This document shows positions 25,847 through 33,724 of a DNA stretch of 64,000 nucleotides, piece by piece. Origin of the DNA: an uncultured Candidatus Rokubacteria bacterium (lineage in GTDB: Bacteria > Methylomirabilota > Methylomirabilia > Rokubacteriales > DASRDR01); contig CAWGVS010000005.1 in assembly GCA_963826115.1 (NCBI GenBank), forward strand, positions 1,920,001 to 1,984,000, in the 5' to 3' direction. The first letter of the stretch is position 1. The number at the start of each line of letters is the position of its first letter. Below the pieces are notes generated by a model. It had not been told where the DNA came from. It made no database searches and saw nothing but the letters and a program-made list of their open reading frames with translations. The position numbers and the translations under genes are program-made.

Positions 25847-27076
25847 TCAGCGGAGGTCGGATCCGAGGCCGGCCAGGAACCACGCGGCGACGTGGTGGAG
25901 CTGGCAGAAGCTCCCCTCCCGGATTCGGTCGAGGATCACGTCGGGTCGGACGTACTCGACGGCGACCCCGGGCTCGGGCACGAACTCCGGAACGGGTCCC
26001 GAAGCCCCGACGCGGAAGATGTGCTCGGTGACCTCGAGACGCCCCACGTCGGGTCGGAGTCCGCCGACGTAGGTGACGCGCTCGGCGCGGAGACCGGTCT
26101 CCTCGAGGAGCTCGCGCCGGCACGCGGCTTCCGGCTCCTCGCCCCGATCGATCAGGCCCGAGGGCAGCTCCCACGTGTAGCGCTCGACGGCCGGGCGGAA
26201 CTGCCGGACGAGCGCGACCCGCCCGTCCGGCGTCCAGGCGACGGCCACCACCCAGTCGAACGGCCCGAACGCATGGTACGTGTCCGGAGGGCGGCCTGCT
26301 GCGAACTCGACGTCCTTCTCGATCAACGTGGTCCACGGGGAAAGCTCGTGCTCGCGCCGCGCCAGGATGCGGGCTCGCTCGCCCCACCAGCTCTCGAGGA
26401 ACCGAGCGGTCGGCTCCCTGCCGCGGGTCCGGGCGAGCTCCGATGCCGCGTGACCGTCGGCGGTCCGCGCCGAGGGGTCGGCGCCCCGGAGGAGGAGCCG
26501 CGTCACCAGGGGCAGCTCGCCCCGGCCCGCGGCGAGGTGGAGCGGCGTGAAGCCGCTGGCATCCCGGGAGTCCACCTCCGCCCCCGCGACGAGGAGCCGC
26601 TCGGCCAGGTCGACGTCGGCGATGCCCGCGAGGGCCGCGTGGAGCGGCGTGTTGTCGAGCGCGTTCCGGGACCGGGCGCGCGGATCGGCGCCACCGGCGA
26701 GCAGCAGAGCAGCGGCCGGGCCGTGGCCGAAATGGGCGGCGAGGTGAAGCGGCGTCCACCCGTCCCGGGCGTGCGAGGCGACCAACTCCGGCGCGCGGGC
26801 GAGCAGAGCCGCGAGCCGGGTGACGTCACCAGCCGCCGCCGCCTCGAAGACGTCGAGAACGGCGCCGCGGGCCCGGAGCAGGCCGAGGACGGCCGGCTGG
26901 CGGTGGTAGCAGGCGAGGAGTGCCGGCGAGGTCCCGCCCTCGACGCCCCGCACGAGCCCGGGATGGCCGTCCAGGAGGGCGGCCGCGCGGGCGACGTCGC
27001 CAGCGCGGATCGCGTCCACGAGAGCCTCACTTGGAGATCCGGACGGGGGCGAACTGCCGGGCGACGGAGTCGTCAC
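25847..27076 (-). CDS. Ankyrin-repeat / NUDIX hydrolase fusion protein
   Basis: TPLHLAA, TPLHAAL, TPLHLAA repeats, then RQFRP..ELPSG and Nudix box GLIDRGEEPEAACRRELLEETGL. Confidence 0.85.
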   Translation of the reverse strand: MTTPSPGSSPPSGSPSEALVDAIRAGDVARAAALLDGHPGLVRGVEGGTSPALLACYHRQPAVLGLLRARGAVLDVFEAAAAGDVTRLAALLARAPELVASHARDGWTPLHLAAHFGHGPAAALLLAGGADPRARSRNALDNTPLHAALAGIADVDLAERLLVAGAEVDSRDASGFTPLHLAAGRGELPLVTRLLLRGADPSARTADGHAASELARTRGREPTARFLESWWGERARILARREHELSPWTTLIEKDVEFAAGRPPDTYHAFGPFDWVVAVAWTPDGRVALVRQFRPAVERYTWELPSGLIDRGEEPEAACRRELLEETGLRAERVTYVGGLRPDVGRLEVTEHIFRVGASGPVPEFVPEPGVAVEYVRPDVILDRIREGSFCQLHHVAAWFLAGLGSDLR

Positions 27077-27085
27077 CGCGGCCGC

Positions 27086-27829
27086 TCAGACGCCGACGGA
27101 CATGCCGCCGTCGACGAAGAGCACCTGGCCGGTGATGTACGCGGCGTCCTCCGAGGCGAGGAAGGCGTGGACCGCGGCGATCTCGTCGGGGCGGGCGATG
27201 CGTCCGGTCGGCACGCGCGCGACGATCTTCTCGCGGATCGCCTCCGGGACGCTCGCCAGCATGCGCGTCATGACCGGCCCGGGCGCGACACAGTTCACGG
27301 TGATCCCGTACTTGGCGTACTCGAGAGCGAGCGTTCGGGTGAGGCCGATGACTCCCGCCTTCGAGGCGGCGTAGTTGGCCTGGCCGATGTTGCCGAGCGA
27401 CCCGATCGAGGACGTGTTGATGACGCGCCCCCAGCCCCGCTCCCGCATCCGGGCGAGGGCGGCCTGGGCGCAGAGGAACGTGCCCTTCAGGTTGACGGAC
27501 AGGACCTGGTCCCACTGCTCCTCGGTCATCTTGTGGCTCATCGCGTCGCGGTTGATCCCCGCGTTGTTGACGAGGACGTCCAGTCGGCCGAACTCCCCGA
27601 CGACGTGGTTCATCATGGCCTCGACCTCGGCGCGCTTCGTCACGTCCGCCCCGACGGCCAGGGCGCGCACGCCATCCCTCTGGAGATCGGTGACCACCGA
27701 CCGCGCCATCTCGACGTCGACGTCGTTCGCGACGACGATGGCGCCCTCACGCGCGAAGCGCCGGGCCGTCGCCTCGCCGATCCCGCTCCCCGCGCCCGTG
27801 ACCAGCGCCACCTTCCCTTCGAGCCGCAT
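27086..27829 (-). CDS. fabG: SDR oxidoreductase, FabG/3-oxoacyl reductase-like
   Basis: TGAGSGIG, NNAGI, GQANYAASK, YITGQ..VDGG. Confidence 0.85.
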   Translation of the reverse strand: MRLEGKVALVTGAGSGIGEATARRFAREGAIVVANDVDVEMARSVVTDLQRDGVRALAVGADVTKRAEVEAMMNHVVGEFGRLDVLVNNAGINRDAMSHKMTEEQWDQVLSVNLKGTFLCAQAALARMRERGWGRVINTSSIGSLGNIGQANYAASKAGVIGLTRTLALEYAKYGITVNCVAPGPVMTRMLASVPEAIREKIVARVPTGRIARPDEIAAVHAFLASEDAAYITGQVLFVDGGMSVGV

Positions 27830-27849: not shown

Positions 27850-28605
27850 TCAGTCGCCGGCGCGGGCGACCGCGACGAGCCGGGCCGCGTCGAGTCCGTA
27901 GGGGCTGCCGTCCAGCCCTCCATGAAGCGACACCGTCGCGAATCCGGCCTCGCGCAGCCGATCCCGGAGCTCCGACCCCGAGTACATCCTCAGGCGGAAC
28001 CGCGCCGCACGCACCCGATCGCCCTGAATCAGCAGCCACTCGTGTTCGATCGCCGTCCAGTCCTCCACGACCTGGCAGCGCTCGACCAGCACGGCCCCGC
28101 CGGCGAGCGTTCGCGATCGAGTCGGCTGGAAGATTCGCGCGAGATTCTCCTTGCCCATCAGGTCCATCACCAGGGCGCCGCCCGGTCGGAGGCTCTGGCG
28201 CACGTTGCGCAAGACCAGGAGGTCGTCCTCCGGCGCCGCGAAGAACCCGAATGACGTGAAGAGCGACAGCGCGAGGTCATAGGCAGCCGGCCGCCGGAAC
28301 TCACGCATGTCCGCCTGCACCCACTCGACGTCCACCGCGGCGAGACTCGCTCGCTCGCGCGCCCGGTCGAGGAGCTGAGCGGCACGGTCCACGCCGGTGA
28401 CCCGGAGCCCGCGCTGTGCGAGCGGAACGGCGTGCCGGCCCGGGCCGCAGCAGAGGTCGAGGGCCGCCTTCCCCGCGGGTGCCGCGATTCCCGCCAGCGC
28501 GAGCGCTTGCGCGGCCTCGTCCGCGCCCAGGCGGAGCCGCTCCTCGGCGAACAGGAACGGGTAGAAGTCGCTCCAGAGCGCTTCGTCCTCGAACCATTCG
28601 CCCAT
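27850..28605 (-). CDS. Class I SAM-dependent methyltransferase
   Basis: LDLCCGPGRH, VTGVD, ADMR, FTSFGFF, LRPGG. Confidence 0.88.
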   Translation of the reverse strand: MGEWFEDEALWSDFYPFLFAEERLRLGADEAAQALALAGIAAPAGKAALDLCCGPGRHAVPLAQRGLRVTGVDRAAQLLDRARERASLAAVDVEWVQADMREFRRPAAYDLALSLFTSFGFFAAPEDDLLVLRNVRQSLRPGGALVMDLMGKENLARIFQPTRSRTLAGGAVLVERCQVVEDWTAIEHEWLLIQGDRVRAARFRLRMYSGSELRDRLREAGFATVSLHGGLDGSPYGLDAARLVAVARAGD

Positions 28606-28663: not shown

Positions 28664-29122
28664 TCAGCACCGCCGCGCCATGAGGGTGGTCCACTCCGCC
28701 TGGCACACCGTCTCCCCTCGCTGGTTCCGCACCGCCATGTCCATGACCAGCACGCCCCGGTCGGGCTTCGAGGATGCGCGCGTCTCCCGCACGGTCAAGA
28801 CCGTGTGGATCGTGTCGCCGAGCCGCACCGGCGCCGTCCACCGGATCTTGTCCATGCCGAGAAGTGCGAGCGTCGTCCCCTCGAAGATCCCCAGCTGGTT
28901 GGCCCCGCCGGTGGCCACCGCGAGGACGAGCATGCCGTGGGCGATCCGGCCCTTCATCGGGCTCTGCCGCGCCGATTCCTCGTCGGTGTGCAGCGGGTTG
29001 AAGTCCCCGGAGAGCCCGGCGAAGGAGTCGACGGCGCCCTCGGTGACGGTGCGGGCCGCGGTGGTAAAGGCCTCGCCCACCGTGAACTCCTCGAAGTGGC
29101 GGCCGCGCGGCGCGTAGGTCAT
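28664..29122 (-). CDS. MaoC family (R)-specific enoyl-CoA hydratase/dehydratase
   Basis: SGDFNPLHTD, RIAHG, PVRLGDTI; ATGA overlap with the ACAD stop. Confidence 0.9.
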   Translation of the reverse strand: MTYAPRGRHFEEFTVGEAFTTAARTVTEGAVDSFAGLSGDFNPLHTDEESARQSPMKGRIAHGMLVLAVATGGANQLGIFEGTTLALLGMDKIRWTAPVRLGDTIHTVLTVRETRASSKPDRGVLVMDMAVRNQRGETVCQAEWTTLMARRC

Positions 29123-30273
29123 CCGAAGCTCGGCGGGCGGTCGAGATCGCGCCCGATGATGACGCGCAGGATCTCGCTCGTGCCGCCGCCCCACAGAAGG
29201 AACCGCGCGTCCCGGAAATACCGTTCGATCGGATACTCGGTGGCGAACGAGTACGAAGCGAAGATCCGCGAGGCCTCGTCGCAGATCCGGTTCGCGGCCT
29301 CGGACGCGAAGAGCTTCGTCATCGCGGCCTCCCGCGTCACCGGCCGGCCCTGATCGATGGACCACGCGGCGTGGTAGACGAGCAGGCTCGCCGCGTGGAG
29401 CTGGGTCAGCATGTCGACGAGCCGGAAGGTCACCGCCTGGTGCTCGCCGATCGGCTTGCCGAAGGTCACGCGCTCCTTGGAATAGCGGAGGGCAGCCTCG
29501 TACGCCGCGCGGCCGAGACCGACCGACAGGGCTCCGGTCATCACGCGGATCTCGGACAGGATCCCGCCCACCTTCTCGACGCCCCCGGTCTCGCCGCCGA
29601 GGAGGTGCTCGTCCGGAACCCGCACGTCGTCGAGGATGATCTCTCCAGTGGCCGAGGCCCGCACGCCGAGCTTGTCGATCTTCTTCCCGAGCGTCACGCC
29701 GGGAAACTGCCGGTCGACGAGGAACAGCGCGATGTGCTTCATCCCGCGCTCGGGGGACGTCTTGGCGCACACCGTCAGCATGTCGGCGACCGGGGCGTTC
29801 GTGACCCACGTCTTGGTGCCCCGCAGCCGCCAGCCGCCCTCGACCCGCTCGGCGGTGGTCGCGAGGTTGCCGATGTCCGAGCCGGCGTTGGGCTCGGTGA
29901 GCGCGAACGTCGCGATCTTCTCGCCGCGGAGCGCCGGCGCGAGGTAGCGCTCGCGGAGCGCGTCGCTCCCGTACTTCCAGACGAAGTGCGTCCCCATGAG
30001 GCTCTGCATCGCCGCGAGCGCGGCGACCGACATCGATCCCCGGGCCAGCTCCTCGGCGAAGAGGCAGTAGGTCACGAAGTCGGCTTCGACCCCGCCGTAG
30101 GCCTCGGGGTAGCGGAGCGCGAGGTACCCCAGCTCGCCGAGGCGCCGGAAGAGCGCGCGCGGGAACTCGCCGGCCTCGTCGATCTCGCGCGCGACGGGCG
30201 CGACCTCGGCGTCGACGAAGCGAGCGACGGCCCGGCGGAACTCCTCCTGCTCCGGGCTCAGTCGGAAGTCCAT
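29119..30273 (-). CDS. Acyl-CoA dehydrogenase family protein
   Basis: FALTEPNAGSD, G.K.WVTN, R..FGKPI..HQ, ERYFRDAR, GGTSEI. Confidence 0.92.
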   Translation of the reverse strand: MDFRLSPEQEEFRRAVARFVDAEVAPVAREIDEAGEFPRALFRRLGELGYLALRYPEAYGGVEADFVTYCLFAEELARGSMSVAALAAMQSLMGTHFVWKYGSDALRERYLAPALRGEKIATFALTEPNAGSDIGNLATTAERVEGGWRLRGTKTWVTNAPVADMLTVCAKTSPERGMKHIALFLVDRQFPGVTLGKKIDKLGVRASATGEIILDDVRVPDEHLLGGETGGVEKVGGILSEIRVMTGALSVGLGRAAYEAALRYSKERVTFGKPIGEHQAVTFRLVDMLTQLHAASLLVYHAAWSIDQGRPVTREAAMTKLFASEAANRICDEASRIFASYSFATEYPIERYFRDARFLLWGGGTSEILRVIIGRDLDRPPSFG

Positions 30274-30301: not shown

Positions 30302-31666
30302 TCAGACCTTGATCTTGGGGAGACCGGCGAGCGCCGCCTTCACCTGGGCTGCCGGATACTCGAAGTCCTCGAGTTTGCCCGCCATGTAGCGCTCGTAGGC
30401 GGAGAGGTCGAAGTGCCCGTGGCCGCAGAAGTTGAACGCGATGACCTTGCGGTCCCCCGAGGCCTTGCAGCGCAGCGCCTCGTCGATCACGACGCGAATG
30501 GCGTGGGCCGCCTCGGGCGCGGGCAGGAAGCCCTCGGCCCGGGCGAAGGTCAGCGCCGCCTCGAAGGTCGGATTCTGGTGGACGGCCACCGCCTCGATCA
30601 CCTTGTGGTCGTAGAGCACGCACACGAGCGGCGCCATGCCGTGGTAGCGGAGCCCGCCCGCGTGGATCGGCGCGGGGATGAACGAGTGGCCCAGCGTGTA
30701 CATCTTGACGAGCGGCGTCATCTGCCCGGTGTCACCGAAGTCGTAGACGTACTCGCCCTTGGTGAGGCTCGGGGCCGCGTGGGGCTCGACGGCGATGACG
30801 CGAAGGTCCTTCCGTTTCCCGCTCAGCTTGTCCTGGAGGAAGGGGAACGTGAACCCGCCGAAGTTCGAGCCGCCGCCGATGCAGCCGACGAGGATGTCCG
30901 GGCGATCGCCGGCCATCTCGAGCTGCCGCTGGGCCTCCAGGCCGATGACCGTCTGGTGCGTCAGGACGTGGTTCAGCACCGAGCCCAGCGCGTACTTCGT
31001 GTCCTCGCGCTGGGCTGCCTCCTCGACCGCCTCCGAGATGGCCATGCCAAGGCTTCCCGGCGAGTGCGGGTCCTTCGTGAGCGCCGCGCGGCCGGCCGCC
31101 GTCTCGCGAGACGGGCTGGCCACGACCTTGGCGCCCCACGCCTCCATCATGATGCGACGATACGGCTTCTGGTCGTAGGAGACCCGCACCATGTAGACCT
31201 TGCACTCGATCCCGAAGATCTGGCAGGCGAATGACAGCGCCGAGCCCCACTGCCCCGCACCCGTTTCCGTCGTGATGCGCCGGACGCCTTCCTGGTGGTT
31301 GTAATAGGCTTGGGCGACCGCGGTGTTCGGCTTGTGGCTCCCCGCGGGGGACACGCCCTCCCACTTGTAGTAGATGCGCGCGGGGGTCCCGAGCGCCTTC
31401 TCCAGGCGATGGGCCCGGTAGAGCGGCGTCGGCCGCCAGAGCCGGTAGACGTCGCGCACGGGCTCCGGGATGTCGATCCAGCGCTCCTGGCTGACCTCCT
31501 GCTTGATGATCTCCATCGGGAACAGGGGCGCCAGGTCCTGCGGGCCGATGGGCTGGAGCGTACCCGGGTGGATCACCGGCGGCAGCGGCGCGGGCAGGTC
31601 GGCCTGGATGTTGTACCAGCGGCTCGGCAGGTCCTTCTCGTCGAGCAGGAACTTGGTCTGTGGCAC
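30302..31666 (-). CDS. trpB2: TrpB2, stand-alone tryptophan synthase beta-type PLP enzyme
   Basis: [25 protein letters not shown] (PLP Lys), [32 protein letters not shown]; RBS AAGGAGG; no trpA nearby. Confidence 0.95.
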
Positions 31667-31677
31667 GGGAACCTCCT

Positions 31678-32571
31678 TCAGCGTTCGAAGGACCGTGACG
31701 GAGCCGGCAGTCCGGCGCGCGCGAGCGCCGTCGCGTACGCGCGCCGTCCAGCCTCGTCGGCGAACAGCTCGTCGGGAATCCGGTGGTCGGTGAACTGCCA
31801 GAGTCGCTCGGGATAGCGCCGGTCGACGGCGAGCCCGGCGCCAAGGCACCCGAGCGGCCGTCGGCGCTCGCGCTCCACCTCGGCCGCCAACGCGTCAAGC
31901 GGCCCGCCGAGCGCGGCGAGCGGGACGCCGAGCCCCAGCACCCGGTACGGCAGGAGGAAGCGCGTCGACTTCGGGGGCAGGAGCGGGCCGTCCGCCCGCC
32001 GCACGGCCGCCTTGTCGAGGGCCGGCGGGCGGAGCACGACGACGCCGGGCGCGCCGAGCCACTCGCCAACCGCGTCGTCCTCGACCAGGCGCGCCGGGCG
32101 CGGGTGGCCGTTCGGTGAGAGCTGCCGCACCATCTCGCTCGCCAGATCCCCGCCGACGGGCGCGCCAGCGGCGGACCGGCCGTACACGCGGCCGCCGAAA
32201 TGGCAGGCGAGCCCGCCGGACGCGCCGGGCTCGAGACCGAGCGCCCGGCGCGCAGCGTCGAAGGCCGCGGCCGGCACGCCCTCGAGGACCTGGCACCACG
32301 TGCCGATGCGGACGTCGCTCGAGTCGAGCGTCACCCGCTGGACCACGGCGAAGCGCGCGCCGAGATCGCGCGCGAGAACGACCGCCCGGTGGCTCCCGTC
32401 CAGGATCAACCCGGACGCGGCGTCGACGACGAGCGGCCACGACAGGACGCGCGCAGTCGCGAGGAGACGCGCCACGCGCGCCTCGCCCTCGGGCGCCGTG
32501 GCCTCGTGCCGGCGTAGGTCCCCGAGCGAGGCCACGGCAAGGCTGGCGCGAACGTCGTCCGCTGACTCCAT
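31678..32571 (-). CDS. ParB/Srx-fold protein resembling free L-serine kinases SbnI/SerK
   Basis: [44 protein letters not shown] match the recalled SbnI/SerK motif order; stop is 11 nt from the trpB2 start. Confidence 0.72.
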
Positions 32572-32617
32572 CGGCGTCGTGGCGGCGTCGTGGCGCGTCG
32601 GGAGGTCGGCCCGCGCG

Positions 32618-33724
32618 TCAGCGCCCGCGCAGGGCCCGGCGCGCCTCCTCGGCGGCGTCGCTGTCCGGAAACTCGCGGACGACCTGCGTCCAGGCCTGCT
32701 TGGCGTCGGCCTCGCGCTTCTGGGCCCGGTACGCGAGGCCGAGACGGAGGAGCGCCTGCGGCGTGTCCTTCCCCTTGGGGGTGAGGTCCACGATCTTCCT
32801 GTACGCGGCCCCGGCGCGCTCGAAGTCGCGCGCGGCGAAGTACGCGTCGCCGATCCGGAGCTGCGCCGACGTGACGAGCGGATCGTTCGGGTACCTCTGG
32901 ACGAGCTCCTCGAAGTCCACCACGGCCTGCCCCTGCTCGCCCTTGTTCCAGCTCTCCATGGCGCGGTCGTAGAGGGCGCGCGCGCTGGGCGATCCTGCCG
33001 CCGGCGCGGGCGCCGCCGGCTTCGTGTCCGCGGGCACCGGTGCGGCCTTCGCGACGCGCGCGGGATCGGCCGAAGCGGCTGGCGGCGCGCTCCTCGTGGC
33101 ACGCGACGGCGTGAGCATCGCCGGCGGCGTCAGGCCAGCACCGGCCGCGGTGTCGGACCCGCTGCCGCCCGACGCCGCCGCGGTGGGCGACGAGGACTCC
33201 CCGGCGGACCTGGCGCCGGCCGACTGAGCCGGTGGCCGCGCGGGCGCGCCCCCCTTTGACGGGGCCGCGGCGGGCGCGCCGTCCAGCACTCGGGCGAGCT
33301 GACTCTCGATCCCATCGAGGCTCAGCTCGACTCGGCGCAGCGTCTGGCCCAGGTCCGCGACCCGCTTCTCGAGGAGGTCGATCCGGCGCGCCTGGGCGTC
33401 GAGCACCTCGACCTGGCGCTGGAGGTCGTAGCGAGCAGACACGCCCATGGCCTTCTGAACGGCGTCGAACTCCGCGCGCGTCTCCATCGCGGCCTTGTCG
33501 ATCTGCTCCGAGGTGGCGCGCTGCGCCGAGTCGACGCGTGTGCGGACCTCGGTGAGATCGGTCCGCAGGCGGTCCACGTCCTGACGGAGCGCGGCCGGCG
33601 AGTCGGCCGGCAGCTTCGCCTCGCCCGCGGGCTTGGCCCCGCCTCCGCAGCCGCCCGACGCGGCGGCGACCACAATCGCCGCGGCCAGGGCCGTCAGGGA
33701 AGATCTCACGCGCACGGTTGGCAC
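32618..33724 (-). CDS. cpoB: CpoB/YbgF-like coiled-coil + TPR protein, putative lipoprotein; start uncertain
   Basis: Signal peptide ending ASGGC, coiled coil, Ala/Pro linker, LY..A..F..YP..AQ..IG..Y..ALLRLG..V..FP.S TPRs. Confidence 0.75.
   Translation of the reverse strand: MPTVRVRSSLTALAAAIVVAAASGGCGGGAKPAGEAKLPADSPAALRQDVDRLRTDLTEVRTRVDSAQRATSEQIDKAAMETRAEFDAVQKAMGVSARYDLQRQVEVLDAQARRIDLLEKRVADLGQTLRRVELSLDGIESQLARVLDGAPAAAPSKGGAPARPPAQSAGARSAGESSSPTAAASGGSGSDTAAGAGLTPPAMLTPSRATRSAPPAASADPARVAKAAPVPADTKPAAPAPAAGSPSARALYDRAMESWNKGEQGQAVVDFEELVQRYPNDPLVTSAQLRIGDAYFAARDFERAGAAYRKIVDLTPKGKDTPQALLRLGLAYRAQKREADAKQAWTQVVREFPDSDAAEEARRALRGR

Follow-up and report, generated by a model that had tools for sequence, protein, structure and literature searches.

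What is the gene for a putative serine kinase doing directly ahead of the gene for a tryptophan synthase-like enzyme, in a bacterium whose genome holds a canonical tryptophan synthase elsewhere? The question is raised by a stretch of 64,000 nucleotides (nt) from an uncultured Candidatus Rokubacteria bacterium of the phylum Methylomirabilota (assembly GCA_963826115.1, contig CAWGVS010000005.1, positions 1,920,001 to 1,984,000; this whole stretch is hereafter called the window), in which an open reading frame (ORF) of 297 amino acids (aa) resembling the free L-serine kinases SerK and SbnI stops just short of trpB2, the gene for a TrpB-like enzyme dependent on pyridoxal phosphate (PLP). We consider it probable (roughly 0.68) that the two genes form a functional pair, in which an accessory serine kinase feeds O-phospho-L-serine (OPS) to TrpB2, paralleling the pair SbnI–SbnA. 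Three features are needed from the outset:

31678..32571, minus strand: SerK/SbnI-like putative free L-serine kinase of 297 aa (P0001), characterized by translation, profile, structure model and the ratio of nonsynonymous to synonymous substitution rates (dN/dS)
31667..31680, minus strand: kinase–trpB2 junction, with the TGA at 31680-31678, AAGGAGG at 31678-31672, a 5-nt spacer and the GTG
30302..31666, minus strand: trpB2, coding for the TrpB-like PLP enzyme P0002 (454 aa, start codon GTG), identified by NCBIfam, Pfam (PALP) and PDB matches

The kinase-like protein and its partner

Read directly from the sequence, the kinase frame opens with an ATG at 32571 and closes with a TGA whose A is also the first base of AAGGAGG, with the trpB2 GTG (31666) following five bases on; 11 nt thus separate the kinase stop from the trpB2 start, and trpB2 ends at 30302. 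This is the arrangement that a first, sequence-only reading of the stretch had described, including the concealment of the 297-aa frame within a longer ORF call. In fact, both genes are hidden in run-on ORFs (474 aa, 31678..33102, overlapping the upstream gene for a TPR lipoprotein in a different frame, and 515 aa), as is usual in DNA of 72 % GC. The ATG at 32571 can be taken as the true start of the kinase, since all 29 aligned homologues (29/29) begin with MES(A/P)D and since the upstream gene already ends at 32618, that is, 46 nt ahead of this ATG. As the kinase stop overlaps the ribosome-binding site of trpB2, the layout is best explained by translational coupling of the kinase gene to trpB2, an explanation that shares the probability given above for the reading as a whole.

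The translation of P0001 contains, in the order previously listed for it, the motifs RHE (residues 21-23), PLVV (46-49), ILDGSHR (56-62), IGTW (89-92), PPKSTRF (199-205), PYR (208-210), and VPLA (216-219). H22-E23 and D58-G-S-H61-R62 lie in an N-terminal ParB/Srx-like domain, and K201-S-T203-R204-F205 and a conserved tail (D250-R-R-Y-P-E-R-L-W-Q259) belong to a C-terminal domain. The counterparts that had been listed for the two known kinases were recovered in alignments with PDB entries, namely lHE, iDGvHR, sTW, and vTRF..gRcLnLqVPL in SbnI and pHE, DGhHR, yTW, and pKtTRH in SerK. Specifically, DGSHR of P0001 aligns with DGHHR (SerK) and DGVHR (SbnI), and PPKSTRF with PKTTRH (SerK) and AGVTRF (SbnI). 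E23 falls on SerK Glu30, the residue mutated in the deposited E30A and E30Q structures, and chains 5x0b, 5x0e, and 5x0j accordingly show E, A or Q in this column. In SbnI, Glu20 and Asp58 are essential.

The assignment to this superfamily is carried by profile and structure comparisons. There are 87 homologues of P0001 with identities of 46-94 %, all of them labelled "hypothetical" or nameless, and 29 of these (down to 46 % identity) make up the alignment and profile A1. Searched against 177,635 PDB sequences, A1 retrieved only SerK and SbnI (1vk1, E 3.3e-7; 5x0b, 9e-7; SbnI, 5.8e-5 to 3.3e-4) over residues 5-224 of P0001, with the next match at E 0.21. An AlphaFold2 model of the protein (mean predicted local distance difference test score, pLDDT, 89.5; predicted template-modelling score, pTM, 0.86) gave a concordant picture: all nine Foldseek matches in the PDB with E ≤ 0.001 were SbnI or SerK/PF0380 (3.9e-14 to 7.4e-10), aligned over 234-250 columns with template-modelling (TM) scores by target of 0.62-0.74. 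Both approaches hence returned just the two kinases that the sequence-only reading had named. A best structural match to a non-kinase ParB/Srx protein, which would have spoken against this homology, did not appear; ParB, Noc, and sulfiredoxin came next at E ≥ 0.02, and only over the N-terminal domain of some 80 residues.

Conservation follows the same motifs. Invariant in 29/29 sequences of A1 are H22, E23, D58, G59, H61, R62, W92, K201, T203, and R204, and within this subfamily also F205; altogether, 48 columns do not vary. The wider family is considerably larger, with 1,074 relatives at E ≤ 0.001 among 1.84 billion representative sequences (320 at ≤ 1e-10 and 15 at ≤ 1e-30). An alignment of 64 of its members including P0001 (A2) matched SerK at 7.5e-40 and SbnI at 1.2e-24 in the PDB, and 63 of the 64 match the NCBIfam SerK model. 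All 64 members agree at the H-E, D-G-x-H-R, W, and K-x-T-R columns, so that the catalytic Glu (HE) and Asp (DGxHR) are conserved in both alignments. A search of the Atlas produced leads consistent with the SerK family only, while the control genomes of a search with NF053625 were left unused, as they matched at weak E-values, probably through ordinary ParB proteins. The C-terminal extension that had been pointed out for P0001 is real relative to SerK (242 aa), which aligns only up to about residue 222; it is, however, not unique, being common to SbnI and the wider family. Positions 11-278 of the A2 profile align with SbnI 4-251, SbnI aligns across the tail, and the tail motif recurs family-wide (R-x-Y-E-E in the wider family). 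Judged from sequence and model, P0001 falls into the SerK/SbnI superfamily as part of a divergent subfamily, and its set of catalytic-type motifs is intact.

The partner is equally recognizable. P0002 reaches 746 bits on the TrpB2 model NF009057 (cut-off 366) and 670 bits on TIGR01415 (cut-off 519), compared to only 145 bits on the trpB1 model TIGR00263 (cut-off 392), which agrees with the earlier naming of the gene. Its best PDB relatives are Sulfolobus TrpB2 chains (6hul_B, 4qys_B, and 6hte_B; E 6e-136 to 5e-115), and the catalytic-lysine motif SHKPN (K112) and GGGSN are invariant in 20/20 sequences. By these marks, P0002 is a bona fide TrpB2. A canonical trpB1–trpA pair lies on another contig of the same genome, and P0002 therefore belongs to the TrpB2 type found outside the operon. 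TrpB2 has long been known as an "indole-salvage" enzyme.

Some peculiarities of related trpB2 loci may be added here. In one genome of the same class and another family (L118, G001:C11, 3320-6517), a TrpB1-like gene whose product is 33 % identical to P0002 lies about 830 nt downstream of trpB2, so that this trpB2 may, from its position, stand near trp genes. At another locus (L006, 6918-8280) the TrpB2 match falls into two pieces (residues 1-259 and 277-454), and at a third (L008, 3021-4536 and 9634-10783) the matches to a flavin oxidoreductase and an acyl-CoA dehydrogenase are split; these splits are probably assembly indels of long-read metagenome-assembled genomes (MAGs).

Linkage and selection across Methylomirabilota

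In all ten named loci (10/10; MAGs of Rokubacteria/Methylomirabilota), the kinase gene stands directly ahead of trpB2. Among the 251 Methylomirabilota genomes surveyed, 16 contain the kinase subfamily, at 17 places; it is present in 12/14 other genomes of the same genus, in 2/159 of a second family and in 1/1 of a third, corresponding to 4/68 genera that span three families of the order. At 15 of the 17 places trpB2 follows immediately downstream of the kinase gene in the same orientation, and the other two are unreadable owing to a contig end (G215) and an unlisted TrpB2 match (G239). The ten loci and the 251 genomes overlap as samples, and kin are dependent data points. Over the linked loci, the identity to the kinase ranges from 79 % down to 41 % (51 % at L010 and L115, 41 % at L114) and the flanking genes differ; even the TPR gene is missing at L114 and L010 although the adjacency of kinase and trpB2 is kept. 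The expectation that the adjacency would recur in related genomes was thus borne out wherever the kinase exists and the locus is readable, whereas the kinase itself is missing from about 90 % of the relatives that carry TrpB2.

Compared with nine orthologues from the same genus, the kinase has a dN/dS of 0.25-0.31 and TrpB2 one of 0.03-0.08. Since the former value denotes purifying selection, P0001 is not a chance ORF. A tree of TrpB2 proteins does not unite the kinase-linked sequences in a single clade and is poorly supported at its deep forks; the one placement used from it is that of the genome G244 discussed below.

Three apparent variants of the pair were examined. Fusions of kinase and TrpB2, suggested by three longer proteins, were rejected, as these are run-on or frameshifted ORF calls of the kind usual in DNA of this GC content. 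A kinase of 65 % identity (P0237) is preceded by a frame for a non-ribosomal peptide synthetase-type adenylation C-terminus and a carrier protein that runs into the kinase ORF without a stop, which would reflect either a gene-calling run-on or a differing upstream neighbourhood. Lastly, a second kinase–trpB2 pair on contig C11 (239 kb) of the same assembly, with a kinase 78 % identical to P0001, was not accepted as a paralogue, given that its positions 158000-229000 are collinear with the whole window (1-64000) at 76-89 % nucleotide identity; C11 most probably stems from a co-binned related population (bin contamination 5.3 %).

Does the kinase supply O-phosphoserine to TrpB2?

The chemistry that we propose would run as follows. 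The kinase would phosphorylate L-serine to OPS with either ATP or ADP as the donor nucleotide. Its catalytic base would be Glu23, in analogy to Glu30 of SerK, and the nucleotide would be held by the D58-G-S-H-R loop. OPS would then form the external aldimine on the PLP of TrpB2 (Lys112), the phosphate would depart, and indole would add to the resulting aminoacrylate to give tryptophan. Translational coupling would yield both proteins together, and the pair might act as an accessory route of indole salvage, driven by nucleotides and operating alongside the canonical TrpA–TrpB1 synthase. Its design would match those of SbnI–SbnA and SerK–CysK, in which a kinase of this type provides OPS to a PLP enzyme of fold type II. 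The choice of OPS as the link is consistent with the report that it is the native substrate of TrpB2 enzymes (Busch et al. 2014, as cited in PMC11917138). A possible role would be to maintain OPS in cells that have ample serine but whose phosphorylated pathway of serine synthesis is switched off or missing. As relatives live without the kinase, OPS must in general have another source, and the kinase may secure it under some conditions.

Whether the genome itself hints at such a need was addressed through its serine pathway. No protein exceeded the cut-offs for SerC (TIGR01364, TIGR01365, and TIGR01366), SerB (TIGR00338) or full-length SerA (TIGR01327) in the genome, which is 99 % complete, and the search, which included a scan of ten candidate ORFs, brought up nothing but short 2-hydroxyacid dehydrogenases, of which the genome has many, and several class-V aminotransferases resembling AGXT/BhcA. 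This absence lends weak support to the idea of OPS supply, since roughly half of the control genomes fall short of the cut-offs (the three SerC cut-offs are reached by 4, 2, and 1 of 14), and because the cut-offs miss many real enzymes, we do not conclude that a phosphorylated pathway is lacking.

Transcript data speak to the locus in a limited manner. Every RNA run contained at most 6 % of the sampled sequence words. In four RNA libraries, short contigs of 85-99 % likeness covered trpB2 as well as some parts of the kinase gene; these derive from relatives, do not document transcription in this organism, and have depths that cannot rank genes. One contig from a rhizosphere metatranscriptome (X18) joins 31689 to 32618 and skips the whole kinase gene; this is the kinase-less arrangement, presumably from a related organism.

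Several observations weigh against the supply of OPS to TrpB2 by P0001. Taken alone, the protein gives sub-threshold matches only (NCBIfam SbnI, E 0.027; SerK, E 0.039; SerK chains in the PDB, E 0.85-1.2), and with 13.1 bits on the SerK model (cut-off 380) and 13.9 bits on the SbnI model (cut-off 350) it remains far below both equivalog cut-offs, for which reason it is to be regarded as a distinct subfamily and as the equivalog of neither. ParB-fold proteins can moreover bind other nucleotides, and a SerK-like protein bound CTP (PMC12704722); the NCBIfam SbnI model, in turn, is named as a bifunctional transcriptional regulator and O-phospho-L-serine synthase. At the level of the locus, no Shine–Dalgarno sequence is visible ahead of the kinase ATG, promoter and terminator scans around the pair returned 0 sites, and no riboswitch, T-box or tryptophan-responsive leader was detected there (Rfam at E ≤ 1 yielded one viral hairpin at chance level). 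The pair is further embedded among genes that are unrelated to it, none of which appears from its Pfam domains to be connected to tryptophan or serine:

32618..33724, minus strand: TPR lipoprotein, YbgF/YfiO-like, heading the same-strand cluster (Pfam TPR_6 and YfiO; synteny in the genus)
29119-30273, minus strand: acyl-CoA dehydrogenase (Pfam)
28664-29122, minus strand: MaoC dehydratase (Pfam)
27850-28605, minus strand: S-adenosylmethionine (SAM) methyltransferase (Pfam)
27086-27829, minus strand: short-chain dehydrogenase/reductase (SDR; Pfam)
25847-27076, minus strand: ankyrin repeats with a C-terminal NUDIX hydrolase domain, 409 aa

The last of these combines two domains in a pairing that is uncommon for a bacterium.

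The remaining counter-evidence concerns distribution and constraint. TrpB2 is encoded in 151/251 genomes (61/104 of high quality) as compared to 16/251 (6/104) for the kinase, and sister genera keep the order trpB2, acyl-CoA dehydrogenase, MaoC, and SDR without it; at nine kinase-less trpB2 loci, no ORF matching A1 or A2 was present within about 3.5 kb. Conversely, TrpB2 was encountered within 4 kb in 0/80 metagenome loci of the wider SerK-like family (L027-L106). By dN/dS, the kinase is under roughly five-fold weaker constraint than TrpB2. Within the genus, the gene has been cleanly deleted in G244 (97 % complete), which counts as a secondary loss, since the TrpB2 of this genome nests in a kinase-bearing clade (support 100/99). 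Here (L107, G244:C87, 3440-3520), the TPR stop is followed by about 60 nt and then by ...TGAAGGAGGttcccGTG of trpB2, the junction having outlived the deletion. In a second genome of the genus, G241, the kinase gene breaks off after some 105 codons and encodes DGTQR in place of DGSHR; at this locus (L113, G241:C5, 4463-4900, minus strand), about eleven tandem copies of the 9-nt unit GCTGCCAAA run into the junction, and the form TGAAGGAGG-N5/6-GTG is preserved in both cases. Loss and truncation within the genus, together with the frequency of TrpB2 without the kinase, mean that the latter is an accessory and not an obligatory partner. As far as the compared genomes tell, the module is lineage-restricted and non-essential, and its earlier description as self-contained was overstated, all the more as trpB1–trpA is present in the same genome and TrpB2 mostly occurs without a SerK-like neighbour.

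These observations leave room for other explanations. P0001 might be a genuine small-molecule kinase of the SerK/SbnI family whose product is not destined for TrpB2, its OPS serving serine assimilation or cysteine synthesis (the roles assigned to SerK by Makino et al., PMC5120207) or another hydroxy-amino acid being phosphorylated, with the adjacency merely an inherited gene order in one lineage. The restriction to so few genera, where conserved adjacency may largely reflect common descent, would fit such a scenario, as would the different partners in the wider family and the many relatives that possess TrpB2 only. We nonetheless regard it as unlikely, given that the kinase stop overlaps the trpB2 ribosome-binding site, that the adjacency persists while kinases diverge across three families and the flanks change, and that Pfam analysis of the surrounding genes places no cysteine or serine gene near the pair.

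Less likely still, P0001 would bind nucleotides through its ParB fold without catalysis and would regulate trpB2 by binding DNA or TrpB2 allosterically. Many proteins use the ParB-CTPase fold as a switch or scaffold, and both the CTP binding of a SerK-like protein and the regulatory function in the name of the SbnI model would be in keeping with it. A pure regulator would, however, have no need for HE, DGxHR, and KxTR, all of which are invariant; Pfam returned no match for P0001 even at E ≤ 1, neither Pfam nor the AlphaFold model contains a helix-turn-helix or other DNA-binding domain, and the model predicts that the entire two-domain kinase fold is retained. That the gene is a decaying relic without function in this genome appears least probable of all and fits poorly with an intact ORF, a confident model, a dN/dS well under 1, and 48 columns held constant among homologues as distant as 46 % identity, even if the loss in G244, the truncation in G241, the higher dN/dS relative to TrpB2, and the weak initiation context at the ATG are what such decay would leave behind.

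Supply of OPS to TrpB2 by the kinase hence remains the preferred interpretation, and it can be extended. With the odds about even, dedicated serine kinases may be recurrent and portable partners of TrpB2, and OPS instead of serine the physiological TrpB2 substrate in vivo; the Rokubacteria pair, SbnI–SbnA, SerK–CysK, and the archaeal SerK-like/ThiS-like pairs described below would then share one general design, in which serine is activated with phosphate that is subsequently replaced, and the kinase would be gained where the normal OPS pool is unreliable and lost where it is reliable. A bolder and purely speculative version has the kinase dock on TrpB2 in the place of TrpA and hand over OPS. 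A complex prediction for TrpB2 and the kinase (score 0.00, mark 0.32) counts neither way.

Relation to known systems

In the wider SerK-like family, the products encoded most often beside the SerK-like gene are a ThiS/MoaD-like protein (25/79 loci) and a SerA-like dehydrogenase (8 loci). Such OPS-related partners fit a function of the family as OPS suppliers, as far as gene context can indicate. The ThiS/MoaD-like partner (106 aa) directly follows the SerK-like gene and sometimes overlaps it (e. g., L040:4001-5123), and the loci of the wider family are archaeal in context (genes for thermosome, archaeal SAM synthetase, and class-I LysRS in 22, 12, and 8 loci, respectively). From their arrangement, the SerK-like/ThiS-like pairs may constitute a route to cysteine from OPS and a protein thiocarboxylate, which would resemble the mycobacterial CysM/CysO system.

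The pairing of TrpB2 with a serine kinase had been thought undescribed, and literature searches, from which subscription journals were mostly excluded, indeed found no paper that reports it; the one co-mention of TrpB2 and ParB proved to be an unrelated transcriptome table. Within the literature searched, a kinase of known type and a PLP enzyme of a known OPS-using type thus seem to occur here in a combination that is not in print. A 2025 survey of ParB-CTPases lists SerK among many uncharacterized orphans, and its text does not contain the word "tryptophan" (PMC12704722). If the proposed function is correct, the coupled kinase gene would offer a natural answer to the questions of whether the OPS preference of TrpB2 matters in cells and where this OPS comes from. 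It would also extend the small set of free-serine kinases, with SerK in hyperthermophilic archaea and SbnI in staphylococci, to an uncultured soil phylum, and the roughly 1,000 unannotated relatives suggest that phosphorylation of serine for PLP-dependent β-replacement is far commoner than annotated. For annotation, a kinase family comes into view that lacks a Pfam or NCBIfam assignment and is "hypothetical" throughout. This significance is tempered by the narrow spread and the dispensability of the kinase–trpB2 pair.

Remote SbnI-like serine kinases, also put forward as substitutes for the phosphatase, have likewise been proposed from gene context and structure prediction in the case of SerBK (DUF1015; GapMind 2026, bioRxiv 10.1101/2024.10.14.618325). 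SerBK differs in belonging to the DUF1015 family, in its linkage to serA/serC, and in its proposed role in serine synthesis and utilization; the term "TrpB2" does not occur in that paper. Closer to P0001 are SerK (TK0378, T. kodakarensis) and PF0380 (P. furiosus; structures 5x0b-5x0k and 1vk1), which are its best profile matches and have the two-domain fold in common with it (Foldseek E 1.5e-11 to 7.4e-10); SerK Glu30, DGHHR, and PKTTRH correspond to E23, DGSHR, and PKSTRF. P0001 departs from SerK in having Phe instead of His after TR and in extending about 75 residues further at the C-terminus; its source is a mesophilic lineage of soil bacteria, and its partner is TrpB2 instead of CysK or SerA. 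SerK is described as an ADP-dependent free serine kinase that feeds cysteine synthesis and serine assimilation, and clear-cut homologues were not found in bacteria according to the same study (Makino et al., PMC5120207). On the side of the partner, P0002 resembles the OPS-dependent TrpB2 enzymes (Busch et al. 2014, Biochemistry 53:6078, cited in PMC11917138 and PMC12727527) in its full TrpB2 score, its match to Sulfolobus, and its place outside trpB1–trpA.

The best structural match of all is SbnI from S. aureus and S. pseudintermedius (5uje, 5ujd, and 6nr6; E 3.9e-14 to 1.6e-13, TM 0.68-0.74, 244-250 columns). It belongs to the staphyloferrin B cluster and phosphorylates free L-serine at the expense of ATP, feeding OPS to the PLP enzyme SbnA. 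SbnI and P0001 have in common HE, DGxHR, (S/G)TW, TRF..R.L.L.VPL..L, and the C-terminal region beyond the end of SerK. They differ in that their identity amounts to only 16-18 %, P0001 is about 40 aa longer, no siderophore cluster is found at the present locus, and there is no sign of the regulatory role that is named in the NCBIfam model of SbnI; the partner, moreover, is TrpB2 instead of SbnA. What the two systems would share is their logic: a kinase gene beside the gene of a fold-type-II PLP enzyme, here co-oriented and separated by 11 nt, with the use of OPS by the partner enzyme predicted for the Rokubacteria pair.

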